From a virus (lineage: Duplodnaviria; Caudoviricetes): DNA of 64,000 nucleotides. Position 1 is the first letter of the stretch; every line of letters starts with the position of its first letter. Location of the stretch: positions 96,001-160,000 of the IMG/VR virus record IMGVR_UViG_3300049792_000048. One strand, written 5' to 3'. The notes under the pieces were generated by a model. The model saw only the letters and a program-made list of their open reading frames with translations. It had not been told where the DNA came from and did no database searches. Below, piece by piece: positions 4,591-58,814 of the stretch. A program made the position numbers and the translations under genes.

Positions 4591-6396
4591 ATGATGCTGA
4601 AGCGTGCGTTCTCGTCGGCTGAAGGCGAGCCGCCGGTTCATCTCATCGAGGCCGGGCACATGACGAAAGTCGCCGGCGCGCTTCCGCTCGTCGAGGACTT
4701 CATCTCGCGTCTGCGTCCAGACCCCAAGTACATGTTCACTCACGTGAACGCCATGGGGTACTCGGAGTACTACGGGCCGAACTCGAACGTCGACTACTAC
4801 GGGTACAACCCACACCTCGACTTCAACGGTCTGCTGCACGCTCCCGAGACGTGTCATCTGCACGGCGAATACGAGAACTGGGAGACCGATCCCGTCGTAC
4901 AGGCTCGCATCGCGAAGAGCTGGCCATTCGGTTACCCCAGCTACTACGGCGCGACGGTCTACGCCCACCACAAGAACTCGGACCCCACCTCGTTGGGCTT
5001 CGGGGATGTCGTGTTCGTCGCCCGCAACGAGGCACAGAAGCGCATCGAGCTCGTGATGCGAGTCGATGTCGACCTCGCCATGCAACGTGGTCACTCTGCG
5101 ATTCTTGATAGGATCGGACGAGGCGATCGAGTCGATGTCTCGATGGGCTGCAAGGTCCCCTTCGACTTCTGCTCGATCTGCACCGACTGGGAGGCCGTAA
5201 AGAAGGCCCAGAAGGGCTACGACCCCAAGCGCCACGCCAGCCCAGGTGTCGCCATCCTGGTGTATCACCGGACCGTGAAGCCCATCCGTGGGCTCGCCAT
5301 TACGAAGGCTGACTACTGCGACCACATGGTCAAGCAGCGTGGGCAGGTACTGGACGATGGCCAGAAGGTCTTCGTCTACAACGACTATCCACGCTTCTTC
5401 GACATCAGCTTCGTGTGGATCGGAGCTGACCGCACCGCACGCGTGATGTTCTTCATGGGTGCGAATGGCAGCCGGCCCGGGGAACGTCAGCGTCCTCAGA
5501 GTATCGGTGAGCTCGTGAAGGGGGCTTCGGACATGTCGAAGACAGCCAGTGAGAAGGCGGAACCTGGAACCCTTCTCACCCGAGACCGCCTCCGGAAAAT
5601 GAAGAAGATGGCAATGGAGAAGGAGATCCCTGGAGGCATCACACGCAAGGTCGAGCTCTGCGCCAACTCCGAGATGGATATCCCGTTCGGAGAGCTGGCC
5701 TCCTTCTCGAAGGAGGTGGGGGCAAAGACCCTGCTCTCTACGCTCGCTGGTCTGGGCATAATGCTCAAGCCGAACGAGTTCCATGGCGTCGTCGGCACCG
5801 AGCACCCGCTTCACGCGAAGGTCGCCGCGATGGCTGCCGAGCACAACATGACGTTCAGGACATCGCTGCCTGGATACGAGACTGGCTATGCCGTGGACCC
5901 CGCCCTCTTCTCGCCCAAGTTGGCGGAGAAGCTCATGCCTTACGTCGAGCACCGCTCTTCGTTTGCCCCGCATCTTCACTACCGGCTCGGCACGATGGCG
6001 AAGACGGCTTCGGCCCCTCTTCCACAGCTACTTGATGCCGTGTTCGTTCATGATGTCGCGGCTCTTTACAATGGGTATCGGGCCTCGCTCCTGAAGCAGG
6101 CTGAGCACCTGATGCCGAAGTACCACGAGGTGTCTCCACCCGACTTCGAGCAGTTGACGAAGACAGCCTCGCTGGCGGGTCTTCTCCTGTCTTCATCCAC
6201 CGTGGTACATTGGATTTCGGCTCACCTCGAAAAGGTGGCAGAGGTCGAAGAGGAACTTGGTGCTGCTGTGAAGTACGTGATGACAAGCCCCAACTACCGT
6301 AAGCTCAGTGCTCTCGGTGACGAGGTTTGCGCCACGATGAATCGGAGCACCAACTTCATCTCCGGGCTCCGGAACGCGGTGCAGATCGCACTGTAA
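4591..6396 (+). CDS. Putative prohead (maturation) protease, HK97/assemblin-like fold with Zn finger
   Basis: YAHHKN (His), DVSMGC (Ser), CSIC...YCDH, FFDISFVWIGAD; lies upstream of scaffold and capsid genes. Confidence 0.72.
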   Translation: MMLKRAFSSAEGEPPVHLIEAGHMTKVAGALPLVEDFISRLRPDPKYMFTHVNAMGYSEYYGPNSNVDYYGYNPHLDFNGLLHAPETCHLHGEYENWETDPVVQARIAKSWPFGYPSYYGATVYAHHKNSDPTSLGFGDVVFVARNEAQKRIELVMRVDVDLAMQRGHSAILDRIGRGDRVDVSMGCKVPFDFCSICTDWEAVKKAQKGYDPKRHASPGVAILVYHRTVKPIRGLAITKADYCDHMVKQRGQVLDDGQKVFVYNDYPRFFDISFVWIGADRTARVMFFMGANGSRPGERQRPQSIGELVKGASDMSKTASEKAEPGTLLTRDRLRKMKKMAMEKEIPGGITRKVELCANSEMDIPFGELASFSKEVGAKTLLSTLAGLGIMLKPNEFHGVVGTEHPLHAKVAAMAAEHNMTFRTSLPGYETGYAVDPALFSPKLAEKLMPYVEHRSSFAPHLHYRLGTMAKTASAPLPQLLDAVFVHDVAALYNGYRASLLKQAEHLMPKYHEVSPPDFEQLTKTASLAGLLLSSSTVVHWISAHLEKVAEVEEELGAAVKYVMTSPNYRKLSALGDEVCATMNRSTNFISGLRNAVQIAL

Positions 6397-6464
6397 CTCC
6401 CCTTCCGAGGCTGCTTCGCGCGGCCACCGACGATCGGGCAACGACGAACGACGAGGTAGACATC

Positions 6465-7319
6465 ATGATGGACTTCGAGACGAAGATCGCAGCGGCGGGT
6501 GATGCTCTGATGAAGCTGGCGGCGGACCGCGGCCTCACTCTGAACGACTTCACGGAACAGGAGTCGATGGACCTCCTGGAGATGCTCATGGGCGAGCAGA
6601 ACAAGACCGCAGGAGAGGTCACGCCTGCGGCAGCGGCTCCGGCAGCCGTGACTCCTCCGGCGCAGGGCGCGGAGCCGACGGACAAGACGGCGAACGAGCA
6701 GCCGCAGCTCGACTACGGCATGGTGATGGCCGAGGTCGTGAAGGTCGCCGCGGCGAACAAGTTCGACCTGACGACGGCATCGCCCGCGGAGCTCAACGAC
6801 GCCGTCCAGAAGATGGCGGCGCTCATGAGCGACCCCACCTACGCGACGAAGCAGGCCGCGTTCCAGGAGAAGCTTGCAGAGGCCGACGCGATCGGCCGCG
6901 TGATGGCTCACTCCTACGTCGACGAGCTCTCGAAGATCGCCGAGTCGAACAAGGTCGCCAGCAAGACCGAGGACGAGAAGCGCGAGGAAGAGAAGAACGA
7001 GAAGAAGGCCGCGTTCGTTCGCGAGCTCCGCGCGAAGACCGCGGGCGAGATGCCCGAGGCCTTCAAGAAGCACATGAAGGGCAAGGGCAACGAGGACGAC
7101 AAGGGTGGCAAGGGCGACGAGAAGAGCGAAGACGACAAGAAGAAGGAAGAGGCCGAGAAGAAGGCTTCCTTCGCCAAGATCGCCGAGCTCCGTGCCGCGC
7201 AGATCCTCATCGAGAACGGTGTCAACCCGGCCACGAGCGAGAAGTTCGCTTCCGCCGACGAGCAGGTCGACGCTGCGGCTCTCAACCTCCTCGCGCAGAA
7301 GGGCTACAAGGTCGGCTGA
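6465..7319 (+). CDS. Putative scaffolding/core protein
   Basis: GAGGT RBS before ATG 6465; helical, charged, 15 K-x-A motifs. Confidence 0.65.
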   Translation: MMDFETKIAAAGDALMKLAADRGLTLNDFTEQESMDLLEMLMGEQNKTAGEVTPAAAAPAAVTPPAQGAEPTDKTANEQPQLDYGMVMAEVVKVAAANKFDLTTASPAELNDAVQKMAALMSDPTYATKQAAFQEKLAEADAIGRVMAHSYVDELSKIAESNKVASKTEDEKREEEKNEKKAAFVRELRAKTAGEMPEAFKKHMKGKGNEDDKGGKGDEKSEDDKKKEEAEKKASFAKIAELRAAQILIENGVNPATSEKFASADEQVDAAALNLLAQKGYKVG

Positions 7320-7337
7320 GCCGGCACCTGAGCACAC

Positions 7338-7574
7338 GTGATGAGCACCCACCCCAACTTGATGTTCGACAGCTTCCTGAAGACGGCGTCCACCGCCTCT
7401 GTCAGGCCAGCTTCGTCGTACGCCTCGTCGGGGATGGGTGACGCATCACAGAAGCTCAAGGTGACGAATGCGCCCAGCAAGTCGCAGTGGTCGTCACCGA
7501 ACCCGTCTCAGGCAACCCCCAACCAAAGCCCGTTCGCGGCTCAGAAGAACGCACCGCCTCCGCCGGTGCAGTGA
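7338..7574 (+). CDS. Small low-complexity head-module protein
   Basis: Fills operon gap; FLKTAS motif; Ser/Pro-rich. Confidence 0.5.
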   Translation: MMSTHPNLMFDSFLKTASTASVRPASSYASSGMGDASQKLKVTNAPSKSQWSSPNPSQATPNQSPFAAQKNAPPPPVQ

Positions 7575-7584
7575 GGAAGACGTC

Positions 7585-8487
7585 ATGCGAAAGCTCAGTG
7601 CACTGGTGAATACCGCACTCGAATCCGCGAGCGAGAAGATCGCCTCGACGGTCGATGCGAGCGCAGCGGAAGCCGTGAAGGCTGCCGAGGCCGAGAAGCG
7701 TGCCGCGGCGGCTGCTGCCGTTCCGGTCCGCACGAAGGAGGCCGAGAAGCGCGCAAGCGTGATCACCACGGCAGCCGAGGCCGTCAAGGTCGCCGAGGTG
7801 CTGGAGCATCTCGCGGTCGTGATGCCCAAGCTCGCCGAGATGGGCACGAACCGCGGTGGTGGCAGCACGAACGTGCAGGACCGCACCGGCCCCGAGATCC
7901 TCACGTCGCCCGACAAGGGCGTGACGAAGGACACGATGACGTCGGCCTCGTCGATCCCGGCGCAGCGTGCGCATTCGGGCGGTGGCCCCGGCCACGGCAT
8001 GCACATCGAGACGAACAAGAACGACGCGCCCTGGAGCAAGTCCAAGAGCGCGGCCGAGGAGATCCTCACGGCGAAGATCGCACAGAGCAATGCTCTGCTC
8101 GCGGTCGGTCGTGCGAAGGAGGCCACGGAGCTCGCGAACACGGCTCGCACCGAGTTCGAGACCGCCAAGAAGGCGTACGAGGAGGAGGATGCCTCCACCA
8201 AGACGCCGCACGGCAACCCGAAGTCGCTGGCGACGAACCGCAACCAGGGCGACCTCCCGGTCCCCACGGGTCCGGTCCGTGACAACGCGGGCATGATCTC
8301 GATGACCAAGCGCGACGCCAAGACGAAGGACGTCCGCGCCGAGGCAGGCAAGCACGTCTCGGAGACCGCTCTCTCGGCGAAGACCGACAAGGGTCTCTCC
8401 GACAACCTCGACCACATCGAGGGGGCGAAGATCGCTTCCATCCTCGACACCGCGGCAGCGCGAAAGGCGGCGGCCACGGCCGCCTGA
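7585..8487 (+). CDS. Putative core/scaffold protein
   Basis: GAGGA RBS; Ala-rich; many K-x-A motifs (KIAS, KRAS, KVAE, KLAE, KIAQ). Confidence 0.6.
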   Translation: MRKLSALVNTALESASEKIASTVDASAAEAVKAAEAEKRAAAAAAVPVRTKEAEKRASVITTAAEAVKVAEVLEHLAVVMPKLAEMGTNRGGGSTNVQDRTGPEILTSPDKGVTKDTMTSASSIPAQRAHSGGGPGHGMHIETNKNDAPWSKSKSAAEEILTAKIAQSNALLAVGRAKEATELANTARTEFETAKKAYEEEDASTKTPHGNPKSLATNRNQGDLPVPTGPVRDNAGMISMTKRDAKTKDVRAEAGKHVSETALSAKTDKGLSDNLDHIEGAKIASILDTAAARKAAATAA

Positions 8488-8499
8488 AGGGAGACGAAC

Positions 8500-8904
8500 A
8501 TGGACCTCATCAAGCTCGCTTCGGATTCGCCTGCCGTCCTTCTCGAAGGCGCCAAGACGATCCGCAAGCTCGCGTCGGACAACGTGGAGCTCCAGGCCGA
8601 CAAGATGGCTGCGCTCCACCAGCTCCACATCCACAAGCTCGCGATGCTGATGCACGAGCGCGGCCTGGAGCCCGCTCTGTCGCTGTCGGAGAAGGTCGCG
8701 CATCTGAGTTCGGTCGAGCCCTCGAAGCTCGATGCGATCGAAGCCGCCGTCGAGATGAGCGCGGGCGGCTTCAAGCTGGCGACGCTTCGCACCGACGAGG
8801 AGACCTCGTCTTCGCACGGTGCGGGGCCGACGACGTTGTCCGGGGAGCTCGGTTCCTCGGCGAACTACGACCGACTGGACGCGCTCGTCCAGGCGATCGG
8901 CTGA
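8500..8904 (+). CDS. Putative small scaffolding protein
   Basis: GGGAG RBS; 6 of 8 Lys in K-x-A; two genes before capsid gene. Confidence 0.6.
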   Translation: MDLIKLASDSPAVLLEGAKTIRKLASDNVELQADKMAALHQLHIHKLAMLMHERGLEPALSLSEKVAHLSSVEPSKLDAIEAAVEMSAGGFKLATLRTDEETSSSHGAGPTTLSGELGSSANYDRLDALVQAIG

Positions 8905-8931
8905 TCCACACCGAGGAACCAGACAGGAGAG

Positions 8932-9414
8932 ATGATCATGAGCACGAACGATCGGAAGTTCGAGGTGGTGTTCCCCACGTCGTGGGATCGCCTGATGCGC
9001 CCCGCGATGGAGGTCGCCGACAAGGACCTCCTCAACCCCAACATCTCGGGCAAGGTCCCGCTGATGGATGGTGAGTTCGTCACGGAGGACAGCTCGTACA
9101 AGCTCGTCCGCGCGACGGACCAGACGGCCCTCGTCCCCGCCTACGCCTTCCTGGAGTGGCGTGGTGACTACGGCATGCAGGCGGCGGGCAAGGCCGCCAT
9201 CCTCAAGGGCGGCACGTACGAGGCGGACACGATCGTGTACGACGCGACGTCGCTCGTTCTCCACAGCCCGCTCATGACGGGCGCGGCAACGGTCGGTGGC
9301 CAGACGCGGTCGGGTCTCATCCTCCGCACCGGGTCGAACCTCATCATCGGCTACGTGACGCGGCTGGCAATCACCAACGGTGGTCGTCTCCGCTTCCTTC
9401 AGACGGCGGTCTGA
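8932..9414 (+). CDS. Putative capsid decoration/cement protein
   Basis: 160-aa beta-rich protein directly upstream of capsid gene (positional inference). Confidence 0.55.
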   Translation: MIMSTNDRKFEVVFPTSWDRLMRPAMEVADKDLLNPNISGKVPLMDGEFVTEDSSYKLVRATDQTALVPAYAFLEWRGDYGMQAAGKAAILKGGTYEADTIVYDATSLVLHSPLMTGAATVGGQTRSGLILRTGSNLIIGYVTRLAITNGGRLRFLQTAV

Positions 9415-9459
9415 TCCGGTAGTCGGACGGACGGACACAAAAGGAGACAGGAGAACATC

Positions 9460-10572
9460 ATGCTGCACGATGCAAAGGAGCTGACCCTTCAGCACCTCTC
9501 GAACCCCGACGCGAAGACCAAGCTCGCGGCGGAGGTCGGGGGCTACATCCGAGACCGGCTGCGCGAGGCGTCGTTCCTGGAGCGGGTCCTCCCGCCCCAG
9601 ACCGTCACGCGCAGCGACTGCCAGATCTCGGTCAACCACGACTCGCTCGTGAAGATCGAGCACCTGGAGCCGCGTTCGCGCGCCATGGTGGTCACCTTCC
9701 GTGGCGAGCCGTCCGCCCGTCTCCTCCGCGGTGAGCGCGTCGAGGTGCCGTTCATCACCATCATGAGCGAGATGTACCAGAAGCCGGAGCAGGAGTTCCT
9801 GGCCTACCCGTACCCGCTCGGGAAGGTCGTCGAGCAGAACTCGATCCGCGACATCGGCGAGATCCAGGACCGTCAGTTCCTGATCTACTCCGAGGCCGCG
9901 GTGCAGGCCCTCCAGACCGAGGCGAACGGCACGACGACGTCGCTCAATGCGACGGCGCTCCAGAGCTCCACGCCCCCGGTGGAGTTCTCGGTCATCAAGG
10001 GCGAGCTCGCGCGTGCGGTCTCGACGAACGACGCGATCGTTCGTCCGATCCAGCGCCCGGACATCGTCAACCTGATGAAGCTCCTCGATGGCAACCGCCT
10101 CGAATGCGAGCTCATCCTCATCACGAGCAAGGATCTCGACGACGTCCTCCAGTGGACGATCGAGGACCAGGGCTCGAAGGTGCAGAGCGAGACCACCGTC
10201 CAGGGCTGGCAGTTCAACACCCTCCTCGGCAAGAAGCTGATCCGGACCATCAAGACGGACATCCTCCGTCCGGGCAACGTGTATGCGTACACGTCGCCGG
10301 AGTTCCTGGGTCGCTTCTACATCCTGAACAACGTCAAGTTCTACATCGACAAGGTGATCAACCTGATCAAGTTCGTCGCGTGGAAGGACGTCGGGATGAG
10401 CATCGTCAACGTCGCGTCGGTGCGCAAGCTGGAGCTCTACTCCGGCGACGCGACGTCGCTGAACGCCGACTCGGTTCTCGCGTCGGTCTCGCCGAAGGTC
10501 GAGGAAGATCTCGGGGCGCCGAACAACCGCGCCGCGGATCGCACGTTCTTCCCGGGCGTCGTCTCCTTCTGA
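9460..10572 (+). CDS. Major capsid protein (probable HK97 fold)
   Basis: 370 aa, strong RBS, very strong C/G codon bias, position after protease/scaffold/decoration genes, followed by hairpins; single K-x-A at residues 21-23. Confidence 0.8.
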   Translation: MLHDAKELTLQHLSNPDAKTKLAAEVGGYIRDRLREASFLERVLPPQTVTRSDCQISVNHDSLVKIEHLEPRSRAMVVTFRGEPSARLLRGERVEVPFITIMSEMYQKPEQEFLAYPYPLGKVVEQNSIRDIGEIQDRQFLIYSEAAVQALQTEANGTTTSLNATALQSSTPPVEFSVIKGELARAVSTNDAIVRPIQRPDIVNLMKLLDGNRLECELILITSKDLDDVLQWTIEDQGSKVQSETTVQGWQFNTLLGKKLIRTIKTDILRPGNVYAYTSPEFLGRFYILNNVKFYIDKVINLIKFVAWKDVGMSIVNVASVRKLELYSGDATSLNADSVLASVSPKVEEDLGAPNNRAADRTFFPGVVSF

Positions 10573-12225: not shown

Positions 12226-12711
12226 ATGTTGCCCGCACTACAGCTCATCGTGACCTGTACGAAGTGTCTTCGTGGGCTTCCTCGTACGCGGGAGTTCTTC
12301 CCTTCCCACAGCACAGCCAAAGATCGGATGGGGTCGTGGTGCTTGGTGTGTGCGAAAGAAGCAGGCCGTTCATGGAGAAGGAGACGCACCTGGGAGCAAA
12401 GATTGCTCAAAGCAGTGTTTGACCGACAGGTTCAGCGGTGGCCGGAAGAGGTGTTCGACCTGTCCATCCAAGTGCTCTCACAGATGCATGAGCATCAGAA
12501 TGGGCTCTGCCACTGGTATGGGGTTCCGTTCACCTACGAGACCAAATCTGGGCCCACCTTGATCTCAGTGGATCGCCTCGACAACAGTCGTGGCTACACG
12601 AAAGACAATGTGGTCCTTGCCTGCGACGCGGCGAACCGTGGTCGAAAGGACTACAGCCCCGAACAGTTCTCGCACTTCGTTGCCCAACTTCGGGCATCAA
12701 TGAGAGGATGA
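12226..12711 (+). CDS. HNH-like free-standing endonuclease
   Basis: CxxC...CxxC N-terminus; QNGLCHW...SVDRLDNSRGYTKDNVVLACDAAN; atypical codon usage. Confidence 0.75.
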   Translation: MLPALQLIVTCTKCLRGLPRTREFFPSHSTAKDRMGSWCLVCAKEAGRSWRRRRTWEQRLLKAVFDRQVQRWPEEVFDLSIQVLSQMHEHQNGLCHWYGVPFTYETKSGPTLISVDRLDNSRGYTKDNVVLACDAANRGRKDYSPEQFSHFVAQLRASMRG

Positions 12712-12715
12712 CCTC

Positions 12716-13195
12716 ATGACGATCTCTTTCATCAAGGCCAAGGACCCGGAGCAGCTTTCCCGGCTCTTGAACGGCCTCGTGCTCAGCAAGAAGAACCTGT
12801 CGCTGGGTCGTGATCTGGGCCCGCGTGCCATGCCGGGTGACCTCTACAAGCACCCAGTCGCTGGCCTCACCCTGATCTTCACGACGCCCGGGTTCACGGT
12901 GACGTTCTCGGCCAACCTCGACCTCAAGCACATCGTTGCAGAGATCAACACGGCTGCCGGCAAGGACATCGCTCACCTCATCCACTTCGATGACAATGGT
13001 GGTCAGGTGCTCGCCATCTGGGACGACACCACCCCGGTCGTCATGCTCAGCACGGGTACGGCCAACACGTACTTCGGATTTTCGACCACCGTGGCTGACC
13101 CACACCTCACGCAGACGGCGACCGACCCCGACAACATCGTCGCGATCGTCGTCGAGATTCTCAGCCGTCAGTACGTCGCCTTCATCAAGGGGTGA
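12716..13195 (+). CDS. Virion structural protein, paralog of fibre N-terminal domain
   Basis: LYKHPVAGLTL...LDLK.IV..IN...WDD.TPV...TGTAN.YFGFSTT shared with 25458..29321. Confidence 0.7.
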   Translation: MTISFIKAKDPEQLSRLLNGLVLSKKNLSLGRDLGPRAMPGDLYKHPVAGLTLIFTTPGFTVTFSANLDLKHIVAEINTAAGKDIAHLIHFDDNGGQVLAIWDDTTPVVMLSTGTANTYFGFSTTVADPHLTQTATDPDNIVAIVVEILSRQYVAFIKG

Positions 13196-13200
13196 GCATC

Positions 13201-15693
13201 ATGAGCCACGACCTCGACAAGACCTTGCTCTCGACCTTCAAGCCGACGAACCCCATCGGGTTCATCGACGGCTCATTCTTCATCGCGGGGATGAAGAAGA
13301 TGGCGGAGGGCGAGATGCCCGAAGCCGGTGCAGCCGAGGGCCCTTTCCTCGTGCCTCTCCCGCAGGCCGTCGAACTCATCGCACAGATGGTCTCGAACGA
13401 GTTCAAGACGCAGACGTACTACGTCTACTACGCGAACATGCTTCGTGGCCTCTCTCACGAGGGGATCGCGGAGGAGTTCATGGAGCATGCGGGGCACGAG
13501 CTCGAACATGCCGACTACCTGCTGCGGCGCATGAGTGTGCTGTCGCCGGGCGGCGTCTCGATCCCGCCCTACCCGCCGCCCGAGCCGCTGCACGACCCGA
13601 ATGAGATCGTGCAAGCGATGATCGTCGTCGAACAGATGGGCCTCACGCTGTGGAAGCAGCTCCACAGCATCTGTGGCGAGAACCCGATGAAGTTCACCAT
13701 CGAGCAGTTCCTCCAGCGCGAGGAGGAGCACCAGGATGAGCTCTGGCAGCTCGTCGAGCCCGCGGGCTTGCCTGCCATGCCCGTGGCTGAAGCTCCGGCT
13801 CCGACTGAGCAGTCCGCCGAAGGTCAGCCGGCATCGACGAAGGTGCAGGTCGAAACGACTCCGTCCGAGCCGAAGCAGGCAGCGGTCGCCACGTACGACG
13901 AGCTTCGTCGTGCAGGCCTCGATCCCAGCAAGAGCAAGAAGGCCGCCGACCTCACCGCTGGTGCCCGGTCCGAGATCAAAGACGACAACTTCGTGTTCCC
14001 TGCGGAACGCAAGTACCCCATCCACGACAAGGACCACGCCCTTGCCGCTCTTGGGATGGTCGGCATGCACGGCACGTCCGATGAGAAGTCGAAGGTGCGT
14101 GCAGCCGTCGAGAAGAAGTTCCCCGGCATCCACGAGCACGAGAAGAAGGCGGCGATGAAGGGCTTCCTCCAGAAGCGTATCGCCGACCTCAACAAGGACA
14201 TGGATGCAATCCACCACAAGGACCAGGTCCGTGTGGAGTTCGTGCCGCAGTCGCCCGCCGCACTTCGTGCACAGAAGCCGGACGTTCAGAAGAAGACCGA
14301 CAACGCGAAGTCGCCGAAGGACGTCTCGATCAAGCCGGTAGGTGCTCCGATCTCGCTGGTCGACCTCATCGAGAAGGGGAAGTCCGCTGCATATGTCGGC
14401 GGTGCGGTGCTCCCGAACAGCACCGACTTCTTCAAGAAGCACAAGGAGAACGAGAAGAAGTCGGACATGGTGATGCCCGATGCCGATTCTCCCGAAGCGT
14501 ACATCGAGCGTGAACAGCAGCTCGGTGCGCAGCAGGCGATGGCCGAAGCCTCGCACGCCAAGACCGTCGCGATGCAGGCCTCACAGGCGGCTCAGCAGGC
14601 GCAGGCAGAAGCTCAGGCTGCTCAGCAACAGCTCATGCAGGCCCAGCAGCAGGTCGAGCAGCTCACGCAGCAGTCCCAGATGGACTCGCAGCAGGCAATG
14701 ATGGCGACGCAGCAGGCTTCGGAAGCGGAAGGCCGTGCTGCCGATCACTCGATCCAGAAGATGCAGCTCGGCATGCGCGTCAACCAGATGCGGCAGGAGC
14801 TCGCCAACTTCGTGATGCAGGACCCGGTCGCCGAGTCCGCAGCCACGGTCAGTGACCTCGCCGCTCAGGGCATGCCGGCCACTCCCCAGCAGCAGGCGGA
14901 GGCCGAGGTTGCCGCACAGACCGGGGTCGCTCCTGGTCAAGAAGGAGCCCCCGGGCAAGATTCCCAGGATTCTGCGCCAGGGGGTCAGGAACAGGCCGCA
15001 GGAGGCCAGGAACAGCCCTCCGGTGGTGAGGCCAAGGGCGACGACAAGGGCGGCAAGCCTGGTACTCACGTCACCGTGAAGACTTCGGTCGACGTCGCGA
15101 CGATCGTGGGCAAGCGTGGTATCCGCGGTGCCGTCGGCGCTGCTGCGGCTCCCGCGGCTGGGGGTCTTGGTGCCCTCATCCAGAAGGCTCGTCCGTATCT
15201 GCCCGCAGCAGGTGCAGCGGCTGGTGGTCTCGCTCTCGCGGGTGGGGCCATGGCGAGCCGTGACAAGAGCGCGGGGGTCGTCGACTCCGTGGGTCGTGCG
15301 ACCGGACGCAGCATCGCTCACGGTATGGGTGAGGCGGCGACCGAGGCGTTCGCGAAGCACGCACCCAATGCAGGTGCGGCTGCTCTCGCCGGCGGAGGCA
15401 TCCTCGCTGCTCACAGCATGCATGCTCGCTCTCAGCGCAAGTCCGACATGGCGGACTCGGTCGCCGAGGGGATCCGTCGTGCGAAGACGGGTTCTCATGG
15501 TGACACCGCTGAGCGTGCGGTGAACGCTGCCATCAACCACGGTGTCGGATCCGCCCAGCGCGGTGTCCACGCCCTCGGTCCGCATCTTCGTGACCACATG
15601 CCCGCGTTCGTCGCTGGCCTCGGCACCGGCATCCTCGGCACGAAGGTGCTGTCGTCGCCTCCTCCCATCGACCCGTCGCAACAGCAGTACTGA
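13201..15693 (+). CDS. Multimodular head protein: ferritin-like domain, RKYPIHD domain, Gln/Ala coiled coil, Gly-rich hydrophobic peptides
   Basis: E..Y..Y, EHAGHELEHADYL and EEEHQDEL ferritin-like motifs; FPAERKYPIHDKDHA; modules separated by K-x-A/S/G. Confidence 0.7.
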   Translation: MSHDLDKTLLSTFKPTNPIGFIDGSFFIAGMKKMAEGEMPEAGAAEGPFLVPLPQAVELIAQMVSNEFKTQTYYVYYANMLRGLSHEGIAEEFMEHAGHELEHADYLLRRMSVLSPGGVSIPPYPPPEPLHDPNEIVQAMIVVEQMGLTLWKQLHSICGENPMKFTIEQFLQREEEHQDELWQLVEPAGLPAMPVAEAPAPTEQSAEGQPASTKVQVETTPSEPKQAAVATYDELRRAGLDPSKSKKAADLTAGARSEIKDDNFVFPAERKYPIHDKDHALAALGMVGMHGTSDEKSKVRAAVEKKFPGIHEHEKKAAMKGFLQKRIADLNKDMDAIHHKDQVRVEFVPQSPAALRAQKPDVQKKTDNAKSPKDVSIKPVGAPISLVDLIEKGKSAAYVGGAVLPNSTDFFKKHKENEKKSDMVMPDADSPEAYIEREQQLGAQQAMAEASHAKTVAMQASQAAQQAQAEAQAAQQQLMQAQQQVEQLTQQSQMDSQQAMMATQQASEAEGRAADHSIQKMQLGMRVNQMRQELANFVMQDPVAESAATVSDLAAQGMPATPQQQAEAEVAAQTGVAPGQEGAPGQDSQDSAPGGQEQAAGGQEQPSGGEAKGDDKGGKPGTHVTVKTSVDVATIVGKRGIRGAVGAAAAPAAGGLGALIQKARPYLPAAGAAAGGLALAGGAMASRDKSAGVVDSVGRATGRSIAHGMGEAATEAFAKHAPNAGAAALAGGGILAAHSMHARSQRKSDMADSVAEGIRRAKTGSHGDTAERAVNAAINHGVGSAQRGVHALGPHLRDHMPAFVAGLGTGILGTKVLSSPPPIDPSQQQY

Positions 15694-48241: not shown

Positions 48242-49183
48242 ATGAAGAAGAACAAGAACGAGACAGGCCGCAGCGTCCACCGAAGCATCCGAACTCTCGA
48301 AGAGGCGGTGGAGATGCACATCGCCGACCTCGAAGGGCAACTCGAAGCTCAACGCAAGGCTGAGGAACGCAAGGATGTGCGTGGTTCTTGGCGCAGCATC
48401 AAGAATGTTTGGGAACCGCTTCGTAAGCTCCGTGCCGCATTCGAGGCGCACGCGGGTCGTCCTGCGGAGGTCCCACGTAAGGAGTACGAGAGAAAGACAA
48501 CGGTTGGCGCAGATAGAAACAACGAGATCGAAGAGCGGCACGAGAGCTTCGGGCTCGTGAACATTTCGCGCATCCAGGGCTACTCGAAGCTCTGGGGTTC
48601 TTCGGTTCGTCATCAACACTACTTCCGCCTCCAGATCTTGCGTGGCAAACGTGTGGTGACGGGAACGATGGAGCACTTCTGGGACGATGGTCGGGTTCCG
48701 GTCGTGGAGGTCTCATTGTCTGCGGCGCAGTTCGTTGAGATGATCACGTCCCAGAACATCGGCTCCGGAGTCCCGTGCACCATCAACTACGTCGAGGGCG
48801 TCCCGATGGATGAAGTTCCCGAAGGCGCAGGCAGCGAGCTCAAGGTCATGGTCGAGATGTTCGAGGACCGGATGGTCGAAGCCGTAGACGCGGTGCGAAA
48901 GACCGACGACGAGATCAGCGAGCTCCTCAGCAAGAAGAGCTTCACGATCGCGGACAAGGACGCGATCAAGGCTGCCATCCACAAGGCGAGGCGCCTCATC
49001 GACGACAGCGCTCCGTACATTCTGAAGACCTTCGGAGAGCACACCGAGAAGATGGTGGCGAAGGGCAAGACGGAGATCGAGTCGTTCATCCAGCTCGCCG
49101 TTCAGAAGGCGGGCATCAAGGCGATCAAGGACAGTGGGGGCACCCTACTGCTGGGTGCGGGCGATGAAGACAGCACGGACTGA
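48242..49183 (+). CDS. Hypothetical phage protein
   Basis: 313-aa ORF; HESFG...LSAAQFVEMITSQNIGSGVPCTI. Confidence 0.65.
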   Translation: MKKNKNETGRSVHRSIRTLEEAVEMHIADLEGQLEAQRKAEERKDVRGSWRSIKNVWEPLRKLRAAFEAHAGRPAEVPRKEYERKTTVGADRNNEIEERHESFGLVNISRIQGYSKLWGSSVRHQHYFRLQILRGKRVVTGTMEHFWDDGRVPVVEVSLSAAQFVEMITSQNIGSGVPCTINYVEGVPMDEVPEGAGSELKVMVEMFEDRMVEAVDAVRKTDDEISELLSKKSFTIADKDAIKAAIHKARRLIDDSAPYILKTFGEHTEKMVAKGKTEIESFIQLAVQKAGIKAIKDSGGTLLLGAGDEDSTD

Positions 49184-50201
49184 GGTCGAGCTCCACGGCG
49201 TAGTTCGTGATGTTCTGCGATTCCGCGGCAGTGCCGAGGGCATGGGTGTCATCACCCTCATGGACAAGGATGGCACCAGACAGAAGGCCGTTGGCGTCTG
49301 TGAGGGCATCAGCCCTGGAGACTACGTGGAGGTCTCGGGGTATGAACAAGAACATCCCACGTATGGCATGCAGATCCGTGCACAGCGGGTCGTTACGTCG
49401 TTCCCCACGACGAAGAAGACCTTCCTCGAATGGATTCAGCGCCACTTCCAGGCCCCCTGGAAGAATGCGAATGCGCTGGTCGAGGACTGGTATGAAAACT
49501 TCGGCACGCTCGGTCAGTCTCCGAAAGGAGGCGGCTCTTTGGTGCCTCTCACGGGCCCAGGTGACTTCGAGCTGATTCGACTGTGGAACATGGTCGTGTC
49601 TGATCAGACGGGCGCTCAGGTGGTGTTCGCCAAGCACGGGCTGAGTGCAGAGTTCATCGACATCAAGATGTTCGTCCAGCGTAAGAACACGGTGGACGGT
49701 CTGATGAAGATGGGCCTCGATACCAAAGAGGCACACGCCCTTTTCATGGCCCGCGGGAACCGTGCTCTGGAGGAGCTCCGTACCGACCCGTACGTCGTGT
49801 ACTACTACTTGGAGAACGTCCCCTTCGCGAAGATCGACAAGGTCTACTTGGGGCAGCCCGAGAACAAGAAGGTGGACGATCGACGGGTCAAGGCGGTCTG
49901 CCTGCACGAGCTCCGTTCGTGCACGGACGAGGGGCACACGGCGATGTACTACTCCGACTTCATCGACTTGGTGGAGGAGACGTACCCGGAGTTCTCGGTG
50001 ACGAGGCTGATGAGCAACTTCGATGCTCTCATCCCCGAGTTCGTCACTCTCTACGGCTCACCAACGATGGTGCAGCTTACCCCCTACGCACGCTATGAAG
50101 CGGGCATCGCGGAGTTCGTGGTGACTGGTCGCGTGCAGACGCTGCCTCCCGAGCTCGAAGATACGGAGATTGAGAATGACGGAACAGCAGACGGAGCATG
50201 A
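49164..50201 (+). CDS. RecD2-like helicase, N-terminal half (OB fold plus helical region)
   Basis: GDYVEVSG...HPTYGMQ; DPY...FAKIDK...DRRVKA...EGHTAM. Confidence 0.7.
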   Translation: MKTARTEVELHGVVRDVLRFRGSAEGMGVITLMDKDGTRQKAVGVCEGISPGDYVEVSGYEQEHPTYGMQIRAQRVVTSFPTTKKTFLEWIQRHFQAPWKNANALVEDWYENFGTLGQSPKGGGSLVPLTGPGDFELIRLWNMVVSDQTGAQVVFAKHGLSAEFIDIKMFVQRKNTVDGLMKMGLDTKEAHALFMARGNRALEELRTDPYVVYYYLENVPFAKIDKVYLGQPENKKVDDRRVKAVCLHELRSCTDEGHTAMYYSDFIDLVEETYPEFSVTRLMSNFDALIPEFVTLYGSPTMVQLTPYARYEAGIAEFVVTGRVQTLPPELEDTEIENDGTADGA

Positions 50202-51408
50202 TGCAGATCAGGAGCGAGCAATCGACCTGATCTGTTCGGACGAGCCGATCGGCATCATCACCGGAGGGCCCGGAACCGGAAAGACGACGACGCTGAAGAA
50301 GGCTCTTCGTGACGTCCGCCTGATGAGCAAGAACGTCGTGTTGGTCGCCCCGACCGGCAAGGCGGCGAAGAGGATGACGGAGGTTGTGGGCATGGATGCG
50401 TCCACGATCCACCGCCTCACCGGCTTCAACGGAGAGCAGTACGGCACCGACCAACTGCCGCACGACCTCTACATCGCGGACGAGGCCTCGATGGTGGATG
50501 CGCAGATGCTCTACCACCTCCTGGTCGTCATGAAGAAGGGGGCACGGCTTCGTCTCATCGGAGATGCTGACCAGCTCCCCAGTGTCGGGGCTGGCAGCGT
50601 CCTTCGGGACCTGCTGGATACCAATAGCGTTCCGGTGGTTCGGCTGAAGACACTGCATCGCAGTGCCGCGGAGTCGTGGATCTGCTCGAACGCCCCGAAG
50701 ATTCTCGCCGGCGAGATGTTCGACACAACCAAGCGGGATGACTTCGAGGCCTTCGAGATGGACTCGTCGTACGACGTCATCGATCTCGCAAAGCAGTTGA
50801 TGGTTCATCACAAGATCAACTTCTTCCTGGGCCGCTTCCAGCTTTTGACTCCGATGAACGTCGGGGATCTCGGCACGGAAGTGTTGAACCACGAGATCGC
50901 ATCCGAGCTGAATCCGAATCGGCTTGAGGGTGACCACATCGAGCTCGCTGTTCCCCGTGCCTCGATGCAGCAGTTCGCGGGTGTTGGTGACAAAGTCATC
51001 CACGTCCAGAACAACTACATCCTGAACGTCTTCAACGGCGAGCTTGGAGTCATCGATCGAATCGCGGAAGGGAAGGTCTTCGTGAAGTACCCTGGCCGCT
51101 TCGTGGAGTACCCGCAGCTCGTTGCGATGCACCAGCTTCGTCTTGCGTACGCTCTGACCGTGCACAAGGCGCAGGGCTCAGAGTGGGAGAGCATTGGTGT
51201 GATTTGTCACGGCATGCACATTCGGATGTGGTCTCGCCAGCTCCTCTACACCGCGGTCACGCGAGCTAAGCGTGGAGTCACCCTCATCGGCAACGAAGAG
51301 GGCATTGGCATCGCGCTCGCACAGAACAAGCCCCGGGAGCGTTTCACGACTCTCCCCAACAGGATCGTCGACATGAAGAAGGAGGCGGGGAGACGTGTTG
51401 GCACTTGA
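50176..51408 (+). CDS. RecD2-like SF1B helicase, C-terminal motor half
   Basis: ITGGPGTGKTT, APTGKAAKR, DEASMVD, IGDADQLPSVGAG, AYALTVHKAQGSE, LLYTAVTRAK. Confidence 0.92.
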   Translation: MTEQQTEHDADQERAIDLICSDEPIGIITGGPGTGKTTTLKKALRDVRLMSKNVVLVAPTGKAAKRMTEVVGMDASTIHRLTGFNGEQYGTDQLPHDLYIADEASMVDAQMLYHLLVVMKKGARLRLIGDADQLPSVGAGSVLRDLLDTNSVPVVRLKTLHRSAAESWICSNAPKILAGEMFDTTKRDDFEAFEMDSSYDVIDLAKQLMVHHKINFFLGRFQLLTPMNVGDLGTEVLNHEIASELNPNRLEGDHIELAVPRASMQQFAGVGDKVIHVQNNYILNVFNGELGVIDRIAEGKVFVKYPGRFVEYPQLVAMHQLRLAYALTVHKAQGSEWESIGVICHGMHIRMWSRQLLYTAVTRAKRGVTLIGNEEGIGIALAQNKPRERFTTLPNRIVDMKKEAGRRVGT

Positions 51409-54419: not shown

Positions 54420-55646
54420 ATGAAGCTGAACATCGTGCTGATGATGGTTCTGGTCGTTGGCTGTGGAGAGGGCATGCCGGTTGTGTACACCGACAGCGGT
54501 GTGCTCCCCGGAGACGCCCAGCCCACGGCCGATGCTCAGGTGGAGGTTCCCGATGCGGGACAAGCGGATAGTGAAGTTGATGGCGGCCACGAAGTCCGAC
54601 CGGACTCGGGGGCTGACACCGGCGGGTCGCCGGATGCAGGAGTTGATGATGGCGGTGTGGACGCCTCCTCCGGAACTCCGGATAGCGGACCCTCGCCTTC
54701 AGACGCCGGAACTGACGCCGCAGTGGCGGTTAGGTCCGTGGTGGAACTCGGAGTGAACGGCAATACATCGTGTGTGCTTACCAGCACGAACGAGATGTGG
54801 TGCTGGGGCGGTGGTGCAGCGCTGCCGTCACACGTCGCTGATGCGGTCGCCCTCGAAGGCAACTGTGGCATCGGCCTTGACGGTCGTGTGCTGTGCTGGA
54901 CGGCTGCGGGTGGTGTTACGTACGCCGTCGGGGCAGCCCCTTATGGCTCGGATGTCTCGGTGCTGGGTGTGCAGACGTATGTCGGTCGTACGGATGGGTT
55001 GGTCCACCCGTTCAACCTGACGTCGCCTACGTACGCACCAGCCACAGCCATCGACAGCATGCCTGCGCTGAACTGCGCCATCGACATCGCCGGCGGCTTG
55101 CGCTGCTGGGACCGTGTTGGTACCTACAGGAACTTCTGGACGGCGGTAGATGGTACTGCGACCTACGACGCAACGGACGTCGCACGGACCGGCACCTTCA
55201 ACTCGAACGACTTCGTGGCGTGCTTCACCTGGACGGGCACCATGCCGAGCTCGGGTAGCACCACGATCTCTGGTCCCTCGGTCTCGTGCTCGAATGCGGT
55301 GGCGTCCATCCTGACGACGTCATGGACGGGTGCAACTGAGGTCGACATCGATGGTGGACGTACGTGCGTCCTCCTCCCCACATCGACCTCCGGTCATCCC
55401 GCGGGCATCTACTGCTCATCCTCTACGCCGTCGACCTTCACGGGTCCGGCGACGTTCAATGCACTGCCGGCGGCTGATGTCGTGGGCGCCTACACCAACA
55501 TTGTTGGTAGCAGCCTCCAGCTTGGAATCAACCATGCCTGTCTCGTACAGGCGGGCGTTGTGATGTGCTGGGGTGACAACTCGCAGGGTCAGCTCGGCAA
55601 CGGGACGACCACTTCAACATCGACTCCCACGCCCATGGTGTGGTGA
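54420..55646 (+). CDS. Lipoprotein with Asp/Gly-rich linker and RCC1/BLIP-II-like repeats
   Basis: Signal peptide plus VVGC lipobox; DAG/DSG/DGG repeats; WCWG and HAC...MCWGDNSQGQLGNGTT. Confidence 0.8.
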   Translation: MKLNIVLMMVLVVGCGEGMPVVYTDSGVLPGDAQPTADAQVEVPDAGQADSEVDGGHEVRPDSGADTGGSPDAGVDDGGVDASSGTPDSGPSPSDAGTDAAVAVRSVVELGVNGNTSCVLTSTNEMWCWGGGAALPSHVADAVALEGNCGIGLDGRVLCWTAAGGVTYAVGAAPYGSDVSVLGVQTYVGRTDGLVHPFNLTSPTYAPATAIDSMPALNCAIDIAGGLRCWDRVGTYRNFWTAVDGTATYDATDVARTGTFNSNDFVACFTWTGTMPSSGSTTISGPSVSCSNAVASILTTSWTGATEVDIDGGRTCVLLPTSTSGHPAGIYCSSSTPSTFTGPATFNALPAADVVGAYTNIVGSSLQLGINHACLVQAGVVMCWGDNSQGQLGNGTTTSTSTPTPMVW

Positions 55647-55652
55647 GCAGCA

Positions 55653-55679
55653 CGGGGCCCTTCGGGGTCCCTTGCTTTT
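55653..55679 (+). terminator. Intrinsic terminator
   Basis: GGGGCCC-TTCG-GGGTCCC-TTGCTTTT. Confidence 0.7.
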
Positions 55680-55701
55680 GCCCTATCAACAAGATGAAGG
55701 A
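55677..55701 (+). promoter_or_regulatory. Recurrent phage promoter-like motif plus RBS
   Basis: TTTGCCCTATCAACAAGATGAAGGA. Confidence 0.6.
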
Positions 55702-55711
55702 CAGGTTTCAC

Positions 55712-56029
55712 ATGGATACGAACTTGCCGAACTACAAGAAGAACGACCCCAAGGGGTGGTGCGGCGATCCCAAACGAGGAGCAGCTCTGGGTCGCAGCTC
55801 GATTCACGATGTCGCTTCCGATTTCTCAGGTGACGTCTTCTTGAGTGAGTCAAAGATCGATGAGGAGGGTTACGACCAGCTCGGCACCTACTTCGGGGTT
55901 GGTCTTCCTCTCTACTGGGCTGCGACAGTCGATAGCAGCATCGACTTCATGCTCCGTGCGTTCAGCGTCGAGGATGCCGAGATGAAGGTGAAGAAGCGTT
56001 ACCCGAGCGCAAGGATTGTTCGGGCATGA
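55712..56029 (+). CDS. Hypothetical phage protein
   Basis: GAALGR...GYDQLGTYFGVGLPLYW. Confidence 0.65.
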   Translation: MDTNLPNYKKNDPKGWCGDPKRGAALGRSSIHDVASDFSGDVFLSESKIDEEGYDQLGTYFGVGLPLYWAATVDSSIDFMLRAFSVEDAEMKVKKRYPSARIVRA

Positions 56030-56226
56030 GTCCTGACTACACGACTGCTATCGAGCCTCTGCCTCCGCGCTGGGTGCGGAGAGGCCGAGAGTACTTCTTC
56101 ATCGTTCTCTTCTTCTGGTTTGGCGAGATCATCGTGTGGTTGCTGTCGTTACCACCTTCGCCGCCAGTTCCAGAGCTTCACATCGATCCGGAGACCCAAG
56201 CCTTACAGGAGATGGAATGCAGATGA
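56026..56226 (+). CDS. Small membrane protein
   Basis: ATGA coupling; one hydrophobic segment. Confidence 0.5.
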   Translation: MSPDYTTAIEPLPPRWVRRGREYFFIVLFFWFGEIIVWLLSLPPSPPVPELHIDPETQALQEMECR

Positions 56227-56585
56227 GGGAAGCAGTCGAGAAGGTCGTCAAGAAGCACTTCCTCGACCAGATGGATGAACGGATGATCAAGTTGCGCAAC
56301 TGCGCCAACTACGACTTGCACTTCGGTCCTCACAACGCTGAGTACTACCGGGACTCCGCAGAGCTGGAGGATTGGCCTGGGTATGTTACAGCCACCGATC
56401 AGCTCGAAGAGTGGGCTCAAGATAAGATGCAGACGGTGTGGGTGGACATCCAGACGATGGAGGTCTTCACAACGGAGCCCGAGGAAACTGAGTTCAGTGA
56501 CGAGGACATCTACAAGTTCGACCGTAGAGATCTCGGTAAGATCGTGTTCGGCAAGCTGGTCACGGATGGAGGAATGTCGGTATGA
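56223..56585 (+). CDS. Hypothetical acidic protein
   Basis: ATGA-coupled ORF. Confidence 0.55.
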   Translation: MREAVEKVVKKHFLDQMDERMIKLRNCANYDLHFGPHNAEYYRDSAELEDWPGYVTATDQLEEWAQDKMQTVWVDIQTMEVFTTEPEETEFSDEDIYKFDRRDLGKIVFGKLVTDGGMSV

Positions 56586-56992
56586 GGATCTGGAATAAGA
56601 AGATGAGGTTCCCGAAGCCCGAGGAGAACTTCACGTACACCGAGGAAGAGGCCGACGAGATCGAGCAGGCGAAGCTGCACATGCAGAACTGCACGGACGC
56701 GCGGCGTAGCGCCAATAGGGCGTGGAAGATGTGGCTCAACACCACCACGGTGATGCCTCTCCCTCCGATTCAGGTCGCCTCGAAGGTGGCACAGGTCAAG
56801 CATCTGCGTGCACAGACACGACGTCTCTTGCACGACTCGTACGTCCGCTACTACGACGCCGTTATCCCACACCGTCTGCGTTTGCAGCGGATCGGCAAGG
56901 TGGTGGGTGTCTATATCAAAGACCGACTCAGTGAAGAGTCCTTCGTGGAGAAGATTCTTCCAGTTGTGTCCGTGACGGAGACCTCCAAGTGA
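56582..56992 (+). CDS. Protein ending in a major-capsid-protein-like peptide
   Basis: C-terminal VGVYIKDRLSEESFVEKILPVVSVT vs capsid residues 26-50 VGGYIRDRLREASFLERVLPPQTVT. Confidence 0.65.
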   Translation: MRIWNKKMRFPKPEENFTYTEEEADEIEQAKLHMQNCTDARRSANRAWKMWLNTTTVMPLPPIQVASKVAQVKHLRAQTRRLLHDSYVRYYDAVIPHRLRLQRIGKVVGVYIKDRLSEESFVEKILPVVSVTETSK

Positions 56993-57420
56993 AGAACGGG
57001 ATCGTCACCAACGGTCGAACCACCACCTACTACGGTAACGCTGCAAATCGGGCGATGGCGCAGATGTCGTTGCAGTACGCAGCTTCACAGGAGGAGGTCG
57101 ACGAGAAGATCCTCAAGGCCGTGGGCGCTTACCAGTTGGCGCTGGTCGAGGTAGCTCCTTTGCTCAACTTCAAGGTCAGCAAGGAACTCCTGGCCCAAGT
57201 CGAGAAGAAGCAGGCCGAGTATGCGAAGGAGCAAGAGGACCTTCGCATCAACAATCTCAAGAAGAAGTTCCTCACCAAGCCAGTGAAGGTGGCGAAGCGA
57301 TTGCTCTCGAAGAACTGCGAGCTCTGTAAGCAGCCGATCGCTCCTCTTCAGGGCTACCGCGATCTCTCTTCAATCAAGGCGCACTCTGCGTGTGTCGACA
57401 ACCCGAGGACTGGAACATGA
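56989..57420 (+). CDS. Hypothetical protein with C-terminal Zn-binding motif
   Basis: CELC...HSAC; GTGA coupling. Confidence 0.55.
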   Translation: MKNGIVTNGRTTTYYGNAANRAMAQMSLQYAASQEEVDEKILKAVGAYQLALVEVAPLLNFKVSKELLAQVEKKQAEYAKEQEDLRINNLKKKFLTKPVKVAKRLLSKNCELCKQPIAPLQGYRDLSSIKAHSACVDNPRTGT

Positions 57421-58010
57421 ACATCACACAGATCACGATGCCACAGGACAAAGCCCGCAGGGCCTTCCTCGACTACAAGCACGCCGTGGATGCCCGGCAC
57501 AACGACGAGGACATCGCCATCATGAAGGGCTACAAGGCCCTCGCTGAGGGTTCCGCTCTCATCGATCTCCGCAGCGCCTTCCGGGTCGCTGGTGTGGAGA
57601 AGGGGCTTCCTAAGATCGCGGTGTGCCGTGCCGACTTCACGTGGTGTTGGTTCAGCTTTCGAGAAGCTACGCGCGCTCAGTTCATCGGGACTCATGACAC
57701 TTCTCGGAATGCCGGCATGAACTTGAAGGCGCATCGCTACAACTCGGTGTGTTTGCCCGAGGGGGTGTTGACCCGTCCAGACAACGCATGGCCTCGTGCT
57801 CGTGCTCTTCTACCGAGCGTGCCTCCGCAGTTCCGGCCGAAGCATCATCTTCGCAACTACCACATCCTGTGGGAGGCGGAGTGGCAGCCCATCCCTCCGA
57901 CTGATCCACTGCTCCTGAAGCACCTGGGAGGAACCCTCTACGTCGTGCTTGCGCAGTGGGATCTCACCGAGCTCGAACGCGCCGTGCTGGCAAACAGGAT
58001 GTCCACGTGA
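57417..58010 (+). CDS. Hypothetical phage protein
   Basis: ILWEAEW..PP.DPLLLKHLGG.LYVVLAQWDLTELERA. Confidence 0.65.
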   Translation: MNITQITMPQDKARRAFLDYKHAVDARHNDEDIAIMKGYKALAEGSALIDLRSAFRVAGVEKGLPKIAVCRADFTWCWFSFREATRAQFIGTHDTSRNAGMNLKAHRYNSVCLPEGVLTRPDNAWPRARALLPSVPPQFRPKHHLRNYHILWEAEWQPIPPTDPLLLKHLGGTLYVVLAQWDLTELERAVLANRMST

Positions 58011-58264
58011 GGGGTTCGGCCCCGCTCCTCAAGGAGAGCGTCAAAGTCCACACGGTGACAACCGCAACCTTCGACTCGGAGCTGAAGCTCACCAACAAGC
58101 ATCTCATCGCGCTGCTTCGTTATGCAGGGTACGAGGTCTCGGACGACGCGAAGTTCCAGGTTGCTGGTGCCACCGACAGCTACGGGGCTGCTGTCCTCGT
58201 CGACGATGAGGTCACGCTCGATGTTACTTGGAAGACTGTGCATAAGACGGAGAGGGAAGAGTGA
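58007..58264 (+). CDS. Hypothetical protein
   Basis: GTGA-coupled ORF; start uncertain. Confidence 0.45.
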   Translation: MRGSAPLLKESVKVHTVTTATFDSELKLTNKHLIALLRYAGYEVSDDAKFQVAGATDSYGAAVLVDDEVTLDVTWKTVHKTEREE

Positions 58265-58485
58265 CGGACCGTGTGCGGACCCTGGTGGTTGTCCTCGATG
58301 ATGACTACCGGGTAGGTACTGGCGAGTACTTGGAGAACATCAAGACGAGCTTGCTCATGACCCGTGGTGTCAGCAGGGTCGAGGATGGAGAGGTCGTCAC
58401 CAGTGCCGACCACGTCAACAGAAGCATCGCTCGCAGTGAGCTGCTGATAGATCTCATCGAGTTCGCGAAGAAGTGGAGACGTTGA
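58261..58485 (+). CDS. Hypothetical protein
   Basis: GTGA-coupled 74-aa ORF. Confidence 0.55.
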   Translation: MTDRVRTLVVVLDDDYRVGTGEYLENIKTSLLMTRGVSRVEDGEVVTSADHVNRSIARSELLIDLIEFAKKWRR

Positions 58486-58814
58486 TGTCCGAGACGATCA
58501 GCATCGAGCACGTGAAGAGGGCGACGGACAAGCGTGGCGGTTACTTGGTGCACCTCTGTCGTACCAAGGTCACCGGTCGGATGGGAGCTTCCCGTTGGGT
58601 GGATGTTCGCATCCTGAACGGCAAGTTCGAGAAGTGGAACAGCCGGTGGTCCAAGGACTTGGAGGCGAAGGTCCTGACTCAAGTGCTCTCCTTCATCGAG
58701 CTGAAGGCAGCCGAGCTTGCCAAGGAAGATGATCGCGGCAGGCCGGTGGAGGTGCACTACCGTCCGCCGGCGAGGAACGCACGCGATCTGCTTCGCGACA
58801 TCGAGGCGGAGTAG
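58485..58814 (+). CDS. Hypothetical protein
   Basis: TGATG-coupled ORF. Confidence 0.55.
   Translation: MSETISIEHVKRATDKRGGYLVHLCRTKVTGRMGASRWVDVRILNGKFEKWNSRWSKDLEAKVLTQVLSFIELKAAELAKEDDRGRPVEVHYRPPARNARDLLRDIEAE

Follow-up and report, generated by a model that had tools for sequence, protein, structure and literature searches.

Why does a small accessory protein of an uncultured phage carry, near its C terminus, a segment that matches part of the phage's own major capsid protein? The phage DNA comes from a soil metagenome. The window, that is, the whole 64,000-nt stretch analysed here, comprises bases 96001–160000 of IMG/VR record IMGVR_UViG_3300049792_000048 (195,774 bp, with direct terminal repeats), and positions given below refer to it unless another genome is named. 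The phage is one of a group of 160–200-kb soil phages that are distant relatives of the Salmonella phage Arash, a placement that covers those members of the accessory family whose genomic context can be read.

The capsid gene and its N-arm block

The capsid gene and the block from which the copy was taken are located in the window as follows:

9460–10572, + strand: major capsid protein gene, 370 aa, HK97-like (matches to phrog_2522, Arash and 6wkk)
9520–9609, + strand: capsid block K21–T50, a single Lys-x-Ala site and then the N-arm, the original of the copied block (column profiles)

The 370-aa ORF matches phrog_2522 (E = 1e-8), a family annotated 'major head protein', and with E = 3e-7 also 6wkk, a capsid chain of the HK97 type whose structure has been solved. 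Its sole match among GenBank phages is the major capsid protein of Arash (26% identical), which has a more distant version of the N-arm block; at least 1439 relatives of the 370-aa protein were found. A sequence-only reading of this locus had placed a single KLA site just ahead of the copied segment, and K21-L-A23 is indeed the only K-x-A within the capsid protein. The Lys of this Lys-[Ile/Leu]-Ala site is invariant in all 119 relatives compared, the core of the block is nearly invariant and the N-arm is nearly identical throughout the whole phage group. The AF2 model of the capsid protein is unusable (pLDDT 34); a helix is predicted across residues 16–41. Upstream of the capsid gene, the head genes at 6327–8904 include candidates for the scaffold and the protease. 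Between the capsid gene and an 833-aa ORF (13192–15693) lies an endonuclease VII/HNH-like gene (12226–12711; phrog_3322, E = 2e-19).

A capsid segment on a 136-aa protein

The small gene and its parts are arranged as follows:

56568–56573, + strand: Shine–Dalgarno-like GGAGGA, 8 nt before the ATG (read from the sequence)
56582–56992, + strand: accessory protein gene, 136 aa, pI 9.8, whose ATG overlaps the stop codon of the upstream gene (ATGA) (ORF, homologues, dN/dS, AF2)
56642–56863, + strand: predicted long antiparallel helical hairpin, residues 21–52 and 62–94 (AF2 model)
56888–56977, + strand: capsid N-arm-like block, R103–T132 (BLASTP, hhalign, column profiles and block HMMs in both directions)

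The Shine–Dalgarno site, a dN/dS ratio of 0.25 and about 21 homologous cluster representatives together identify this ORF as a real gene, and Pfam and PHROGs gave no match for its product. The match that the sequence-only reading had reported is exact on recheck, in coordinates and in sequence: positions 56903–56977 (residues 108–132 of the 136-aa ORF) and 9535–9609 (capsid residues 26–50) encode 15 identical residues out of 25, without gaps. BLASTP of the small protein against the capsid protein gives 34.7 bits (E = 3e-7) over 32 columns. The similarity also stands well clear of shuffled sequences, with a best ungapped BLOSUM62 segment of 78 against a maximum of 52 in 2000 shuffles of the small protein (mean 29.1, s.d. 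4.1; Gumbel P = 1.2e-7). When the small protein is compared with all 2753 six-frame ORFs of the 196-kb genome, the capsid protein is the sole significant match (E = 1.8e-4; next, 0.5), and in the reverse search the capsid protein finds the small protein as its sole significant match (E = 1e-3; next, 0.5 or worse). Chance similarity as the source of the match is ruled out by BLASTP, the shuffles and the whole-genome ORF comparison. A 90-codon open frame at about 181361–181630 of G000:C1, outside the window, gives a marginal, gapped N-arm-like match (sequence E = 0.019, domain E = 0.11); as a third N-arm carrier in the genome it is probably a chance match.

The codons of the two copies differ widely, as had been noticed earlier, with 48 of 75 nucleotides and 12 of 25 third codon positions identical. 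The third-position figure is about what would be expected for unrelated codons at the G+C content of this DNA, which indicates saturated synonymous sites. Recent duplication as the origin of the segment is thereby ruled out, and the saturation between the two copies argues for an old copy that has been kept by selection.

The similarity starts eight residues before the block Tyr, at the position of the capsid's invariant Lys, which belongs to the presumed maturation site. In the 136-aa protein the block has Arg-x-Gly at the position of the capsid Lys-x-Ala, followed by helix 3 (residues 97–117), a short helix (121–125) and an extended end. AF2 with the family alignment models this protein with a mean pLDDT of 89, placing the hairpin first and then the two helices at 97–117 and 121–125, which are the predicted carriers of the block. 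Foldseek and VIA-align searches with the model returned only generic helical hairpins and coiled coils (Z 8–10), with GINS not among the listed matches; in the ESM Atlas, features gave no usable match and structure gave only generic helical models. The full-size HK97 capsid body (P- and A-domain, about 300 residues) is absent from the small protein, as 34 columns align and the model is a helical hairpin.

Conservation of the block in a diverse family

An exhaustive phmmer search of 1.84 billion protein representatives returned 20 homologues (E = 9e-28 to 6e-4), 68–307 aa in length, and word-based searches gave little beyond this set; a later search added P0143, which brings the family to 21 members (P0002–P0021 and P0143). 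None of the 20 phmmer homologues from the 1.84 billion representatives fuses the hairpin to a full capsid body. Outside the block, members share only 25–45% identity. The block itself is the best-conserved stretch of the family alignment, at 2.6–2.7 bits per column versus 1.4–2.5 elsewhere.

When the accessory and capsid families are compared by hhalign, 34 columns align (residues 102–135 of the small protein, 20–53 of the capsid) with a probability of 94.7% and E = 5.8e-8, and nothing aligns outside these columns. The positions conserved in the accessory block are those conserved in 119 capsid relatives, in the shared order Gly-Gly, Tyr/Phe, Ile/Leu, Arg/Lys, Asp/Glu, Arg, Leu, then Ser, Phe, Glu, Ile/Leu, Leu, Pro. 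Searches with profiles agree in both directions: the capsid N-arm is picked up by the accessory-family profile in eight related genomes, at E of about 1e-8 in seven of them and at 1.4e-4 in the other, and a block HMM built from capsids alone finds 12 of the 21 family members at E < 1e-3. A strict motif occurs at 16 places in IMG/VR, all of them capsids of the same family except the tail in G001, the nearest relative of this phage. At the capsid-Lys position, Arg stands in 15 of 20 accessory proteins, with x and then Ala, Gly or Ser in 13 of 20; at block position +6 the accessory family lacks the Arg that is invariant in capsids. The only K-x-A of the 136-aa protein, at K68, is not conserved among its homologues.

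The hairpin also occurs without the block, in G006 and G007 (which have unrelated C termini) and in P0007 and P0010; the block is therefore a module that is unnecessary for the fold. What follows the block varies too, with Lys-rich tails in P0014 and P0015 and a Cys-rich domain in P0008, and the extensions of the longer members show no homology to neighbouring genes. The earlier description of a peptide at the end of the protein thus holds for the 136-aa protein and fails for the family as a whole, several members of which carry domains or Lys-rich extensions after the block.

The capsid protein of G001 is 98% identical to that of the window (95.8% in nucleotides), and its small-gene product is about 74% identical in protein. 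Measured against the G001 copy, dN/dS is 0.25 for the whole gene; the tail alone gives 0.24 and helix 2 gives 0.09. This copy (L026:1495–1909, − strand) has a 4-nt frameshifting insertion near codon 59, upstream of the block, and the frameshift makes the gene dispensable at least in G001. Past the insertion, the N-terminal frame meets no stop and continues into the downstream gene as a 280-aa ORF, and the C-terminal 68 aa, including the capsid-like tail, form a GTG-started ORF of their own (two member sequences, on two contigs). The frameshifted copy represents either a recent inactivation or a split form. Across the homologues, the block is neither missing nor decaying in most, the exceptions being the G001 frameshift and the few block-less members. 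In three capsid/tail pairs whose sequences were read by eye the tail shows no tracking of its own capsid, and the pairs are uninformative.

The proposal that the segment was retained at the protein level, and is no recent duplication, is borne out by the saturated third positions, the dN/dS of the tail, the conservation across the family and the reciprocal profile matches. The comparisons show a block that is homologous to the capsid N-arm, old, under purifying selection and modular. The distant version in the Arash capsid indicates that the motif has a long history in capsids, and a capsid of the soil-phage clade is the most likely source of the block in the accessory family.

A variable cassette among replication genes

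The small gene lies 47 kb from the capsid gene, within a replication and nucleotide module that includes ThyX, a split RecD2-like helicase, an HD protein and NDK. P0008 and P0014 are embedded in the same module, on 69-kb and 197-kb contigs; the contig of P0008 also encodes a capsid protein 84% identical to the 370-aa capsid, and the synteny at P0014 and P0002 is the same as at the window locus. The helicase (49134–51408) is encoded in two overlapping ORFs, OB_YrrC with HHH_RecD2 and then the AAA_30/UvrD_C core, and the split, present also in L040 and L067, looks conserved rather than an error. The NDK homologue of G006 (G006:C1:141865–142350) has one in-frame TAG.

Within this module, the small gene is the last of a group of four:

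55706–56992, + strand: four-gene variable cassette, 55706–56029, 56026–56226, about 56216–56585 and 56582–56992 (tblastn synteny, terminator scan)

A strong terminator-like hairpin at 55654–55671, found in the terminator scan, precedes the cassette. In G002, which is without the cassette, the homologue of 56989–57420 comes immediately after the RCC1-like lipoprotein gene, and this junction identifies the four genes as an indel cassette. The small gene is absent in G002–G005 and G008, each at least 95% complete by the CheckV estimate, with a profile search included. Cassette nucleotides are 80% identical to G001, compared with 95.8% for the capsid gene, and the region, judged from such comparisons, is mosaic or fast-evolving. 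The G+C content is about 57% in 55700–58500 versus 65% at the capsid gene (8000–10000).

The RCC1-like gene at the edge of the variable cassette (54420–55646) encodes a 408-aa protein with RCC1 repeats and a lipoprotein-like signal sequence (N terminus read by eye), and it is kept in G002, in L040 and on the P0002 contig. Genes for AcrVA2-like proteins (PF26125; L067:7801–9126 and L068:572–1864) lie 1–3 kb upstream of two distant family members; no AcrVA2-like gene was found among the window ORFs scanned.

A possible docking tail

In other HK97-type phages, the N-arm helix docks the C terminus of the scaffolding protein, and the arm touches neighbouring subunits too. Because the N-arm helix is elsewhere a docking site of this kind, we propose, at a probability of about 0.38, that the tail may engage the partner of the N-arm in the procapsid and act as a targeting tail. 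The accessory protein and the capsid protein would bind the same partner through the shared block residues, and through its tail the accessory protein would attach to the assembling procapsid, either to the scaffold or core or to capsid subunits. Most probably, the protein would thereby enter the head together with anything fused to it. The tail would then resemble the capsid-targeting sequence by which T4 internal proteins are loaded, except that it would work by copying the capsid's own interface.

A shared partner is probable since the same residues, charged ones and Pro included, have been kept even though one of the two proteins is without the capsid body; the role ascribed to the block inside this particular capsid would follow by analogy. 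The variable basic or domain-bearing extensions, the pI of 9.8 and the hypervariable locus would fit a docking or targeting tail best. As an accessory gene product from a variable cassette, basic and with varying parts after the block, the protein also resembles targeted cargo. Against a docking tail weigh the position of the gene among replication and nucleotide genes rather than with the head genes, which lie 47 kb away, the junction Arg-x-Gly in place of a strict Lys-x-Ala, the loss of the capsid Arg at +6, the absence of own-capsid tracking in the three pairs and the frameshift in the nearest relative.

Alternative readings

We consider it rather unlikely that the block is an exapted helix that mimics nothing, a piece of capsid captured by an old recombination and now put to a use of its own, such as oligomerisation or contact with an unrelated partner from the replication module. 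The shared residues would then reflect common descent and the generic constraints on an amphipathic helix. The block does form helix 3 beside the hairpin in the confident AF2 model, the gene does lie among replication and nucleotide genes, and own-capsid tracking is absent in the three pairs read by eye, all of which would suit exaptation. However, the conserved positions, charged residues and Pro among them, coincide across the two families despite saturated synonymous sites and 25–45% identity elsewhere, and the hairpin is retained in members that have no tail. We hold it similarly unlikely that the family as a whole forms a new class of phage proteins that mimic the capsid N-arm and the region of the presumed maturation site. 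Its members would either regulate the head protease or scaffold, as a pseudo-substrate that resists cleavage (Arg-x-small for Lys-x-Ala), or serve as a decoy by which a host sensor of the N-arm is blinded.

Each of these two modes can also be weighed singly. It is improbable that a free N-arm copy serves as an assembly brake or as an inhibitor of competitors, titrating the scaffold or protease or capping capsid subunits, so that the phage's own procapsids would assemble only once replication is well under way, or co-infecting relatives would have their assembly poisoned. In one variant, the copy would be a pseudo-substrate of the maturation protease, with Arg-x-small replacing Lys-x-Ala. The copied block does span the position of the presumed cleavage site, with Arg in 15 of 20 members versus the invariant capsid Lys; the location among replication genes suggests expression before the late genes, and the distribution is that of an accessory gene. 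Yet an inhibitor of competitors would poison its own phage too, as the N-arm is nearly identical group-wide, and a timing factor would be expected to be universally present.

We give still less credence to a counter-defence decoy, in which the tail would occupy a host immune sensor of the capsid N-arm without activating it. The T4 Gol peptide, together with Lit, provides a case of a capsid peptide as an immune trigger. Capsid proteins can directly trigger bacterial immunity, CapRelSJ46 being activated directly by the major capsid protein (PMC9712102). Both cases resemble the present one in that specific recognition can rest on a short stretch at the N terminus of a capsid protein of the HK97 type, and differ from it in that the host systems sense the capsid proteins themselves. 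We know of no phage-encoded copy of a capsid peptide that acts as a decoy. A decoy would accord with the hypervariable accessory slot that the gene occupies and with the AcrVA2-like genes upstream of two family members, but a faithful copy of a trigger should itself trigger, and the conserved residues are the same as those of the capsid rather than a diverged, non-activating set.

It is very improbable that the protein is a GINS/Sld5-like replication accessory protein whose resemblance to the capsid is secondary. The best sequence match of the family profile in the PDB is Drosophila SLD5 (E = 1.1e-4 over about 105 positions; E = 0.29 for the single sequence), in an alignment that places the block on an A-domain helix of SLD5, and the neighbourhood includes a RecD2-like helicase in the window and RNase HII and DNA ligase genes in relatives. 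Against this, PF05916 finds nothing genome-wide even at E = 10 and matches none of the 21 members, human SLD5 reaches only E = 0.64, other GINS subunits are absent, the fold searches list generic hairpins and no GINS, and the capsid match is stronger by orders of magnitude.

The decoy, competitor-inhibitor and timing-factor ideas were those first offered for this peptide; none is favoured by the data, and a docking tail would, by analogy, fit the anatomy of the protein at least as well.

Comparison with known systems

Sharing of a peptide between two proteins of one virus has precedents. In phage lambda (C/Nu3) and in herpesviruses (UL26/UL26.5), nested or overlapping protease and scaffold genes have one capsid-binding C terminus in common. 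These pairs are like ours in that two proteins of one virus keep the same peptide for the same assembly partner; there, however, the peptide is co-translated from the same DNA, whereas here it is encoded by separate genes 47 kb apart with saturated synonymous differences. HK97 gp5 consists, in its N-terminal part, of a delta domain plus the N-arm, and the order of a helical scaffold-like segment and then an N-arm recurs in the 136-aa protein. Unlike gp5, the accessory protein has no similarity outside the block, no fused capsid body (among the 1.84 billion representatives) and no place in the head module.

A further parallel is offered by the satellite SaPI1 and phage 80alpha. The C-terminal helix-and-hook of the 80alpha scaffold binds the N-arm helix, and SaPI1 CpmB exploits this interface (PMC5644958). 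CpmB is likewise an accessory protein with a short peptide copied from a head-assembly protein, at an interface that involves the N-arm helix (PMC5644958). It differs in being satellite-borne and in copying the scaffold tail, the ligand of the N-arm; here the N-arm itself is copied, on an accessory gene of the phage's own, and no size redirection is implied for the 136-aa protein.

The internal proteins of T4 are diverse accessory proteins that share only a targeting peptide, which loads them onto the scaffolding core (PMC3012670). As in our family, IPI–III and Alt are fast-evolving and basic, are encoded away from the head genes and have a short peptide in common (PMC3012670), and the 136-aa protein and its homologues show the same conserved short peptide on otherwise diverse proteins, with varied extensions after the block. 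The T4 targeting sequence is N-terminal, about 10 residues long, no copy of the capsid and removed at a protease site (PMC3012670). The block of the 136-aa protein, in contrast, is about 30 residues long, lies near the C terminus rather than at the N terminus, is homologous to the capsid N-arm and has Arg-x-Gly at the junction instead of a strict Lys-x-Ala. Set beside scaffolding proteins, the 136-aa protein is confidently modelled as a helical hairpin, and its block would be a candidate for capsid binding; its gene does not adjoin the capsid gene and is absent in G002–G005 and G008.

Meaning of the shared N-arm

The accessory family is found in neither Pfam nor PHROGs, and a search of the full-text literature returned no phage protein described as copying the capsid N-arm. 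To our knowledge, a free-standing, selected copy of a capsid's own N-arm on a non-capsid protein has not been described before. Peptide sharing is a recurrent route by which viral proteins reach the same assembly partner; in the known cases the peptide is copied from the scaffold tail or is a dedicated targeting sequence. Should the tail load proteins into the head, it would constitute the packaging signal for a large, uncharacterised group of phages and offer a handle for cargo loading; should it act as a regulator of the protease or scaffold, or blind a sensor of the capsid, it would represent a new regulatory or counter-defence principle. Either way, the copy singles out the N-arm block as a functional interface of the capsid, in a family of which more than 1400 variants are known.
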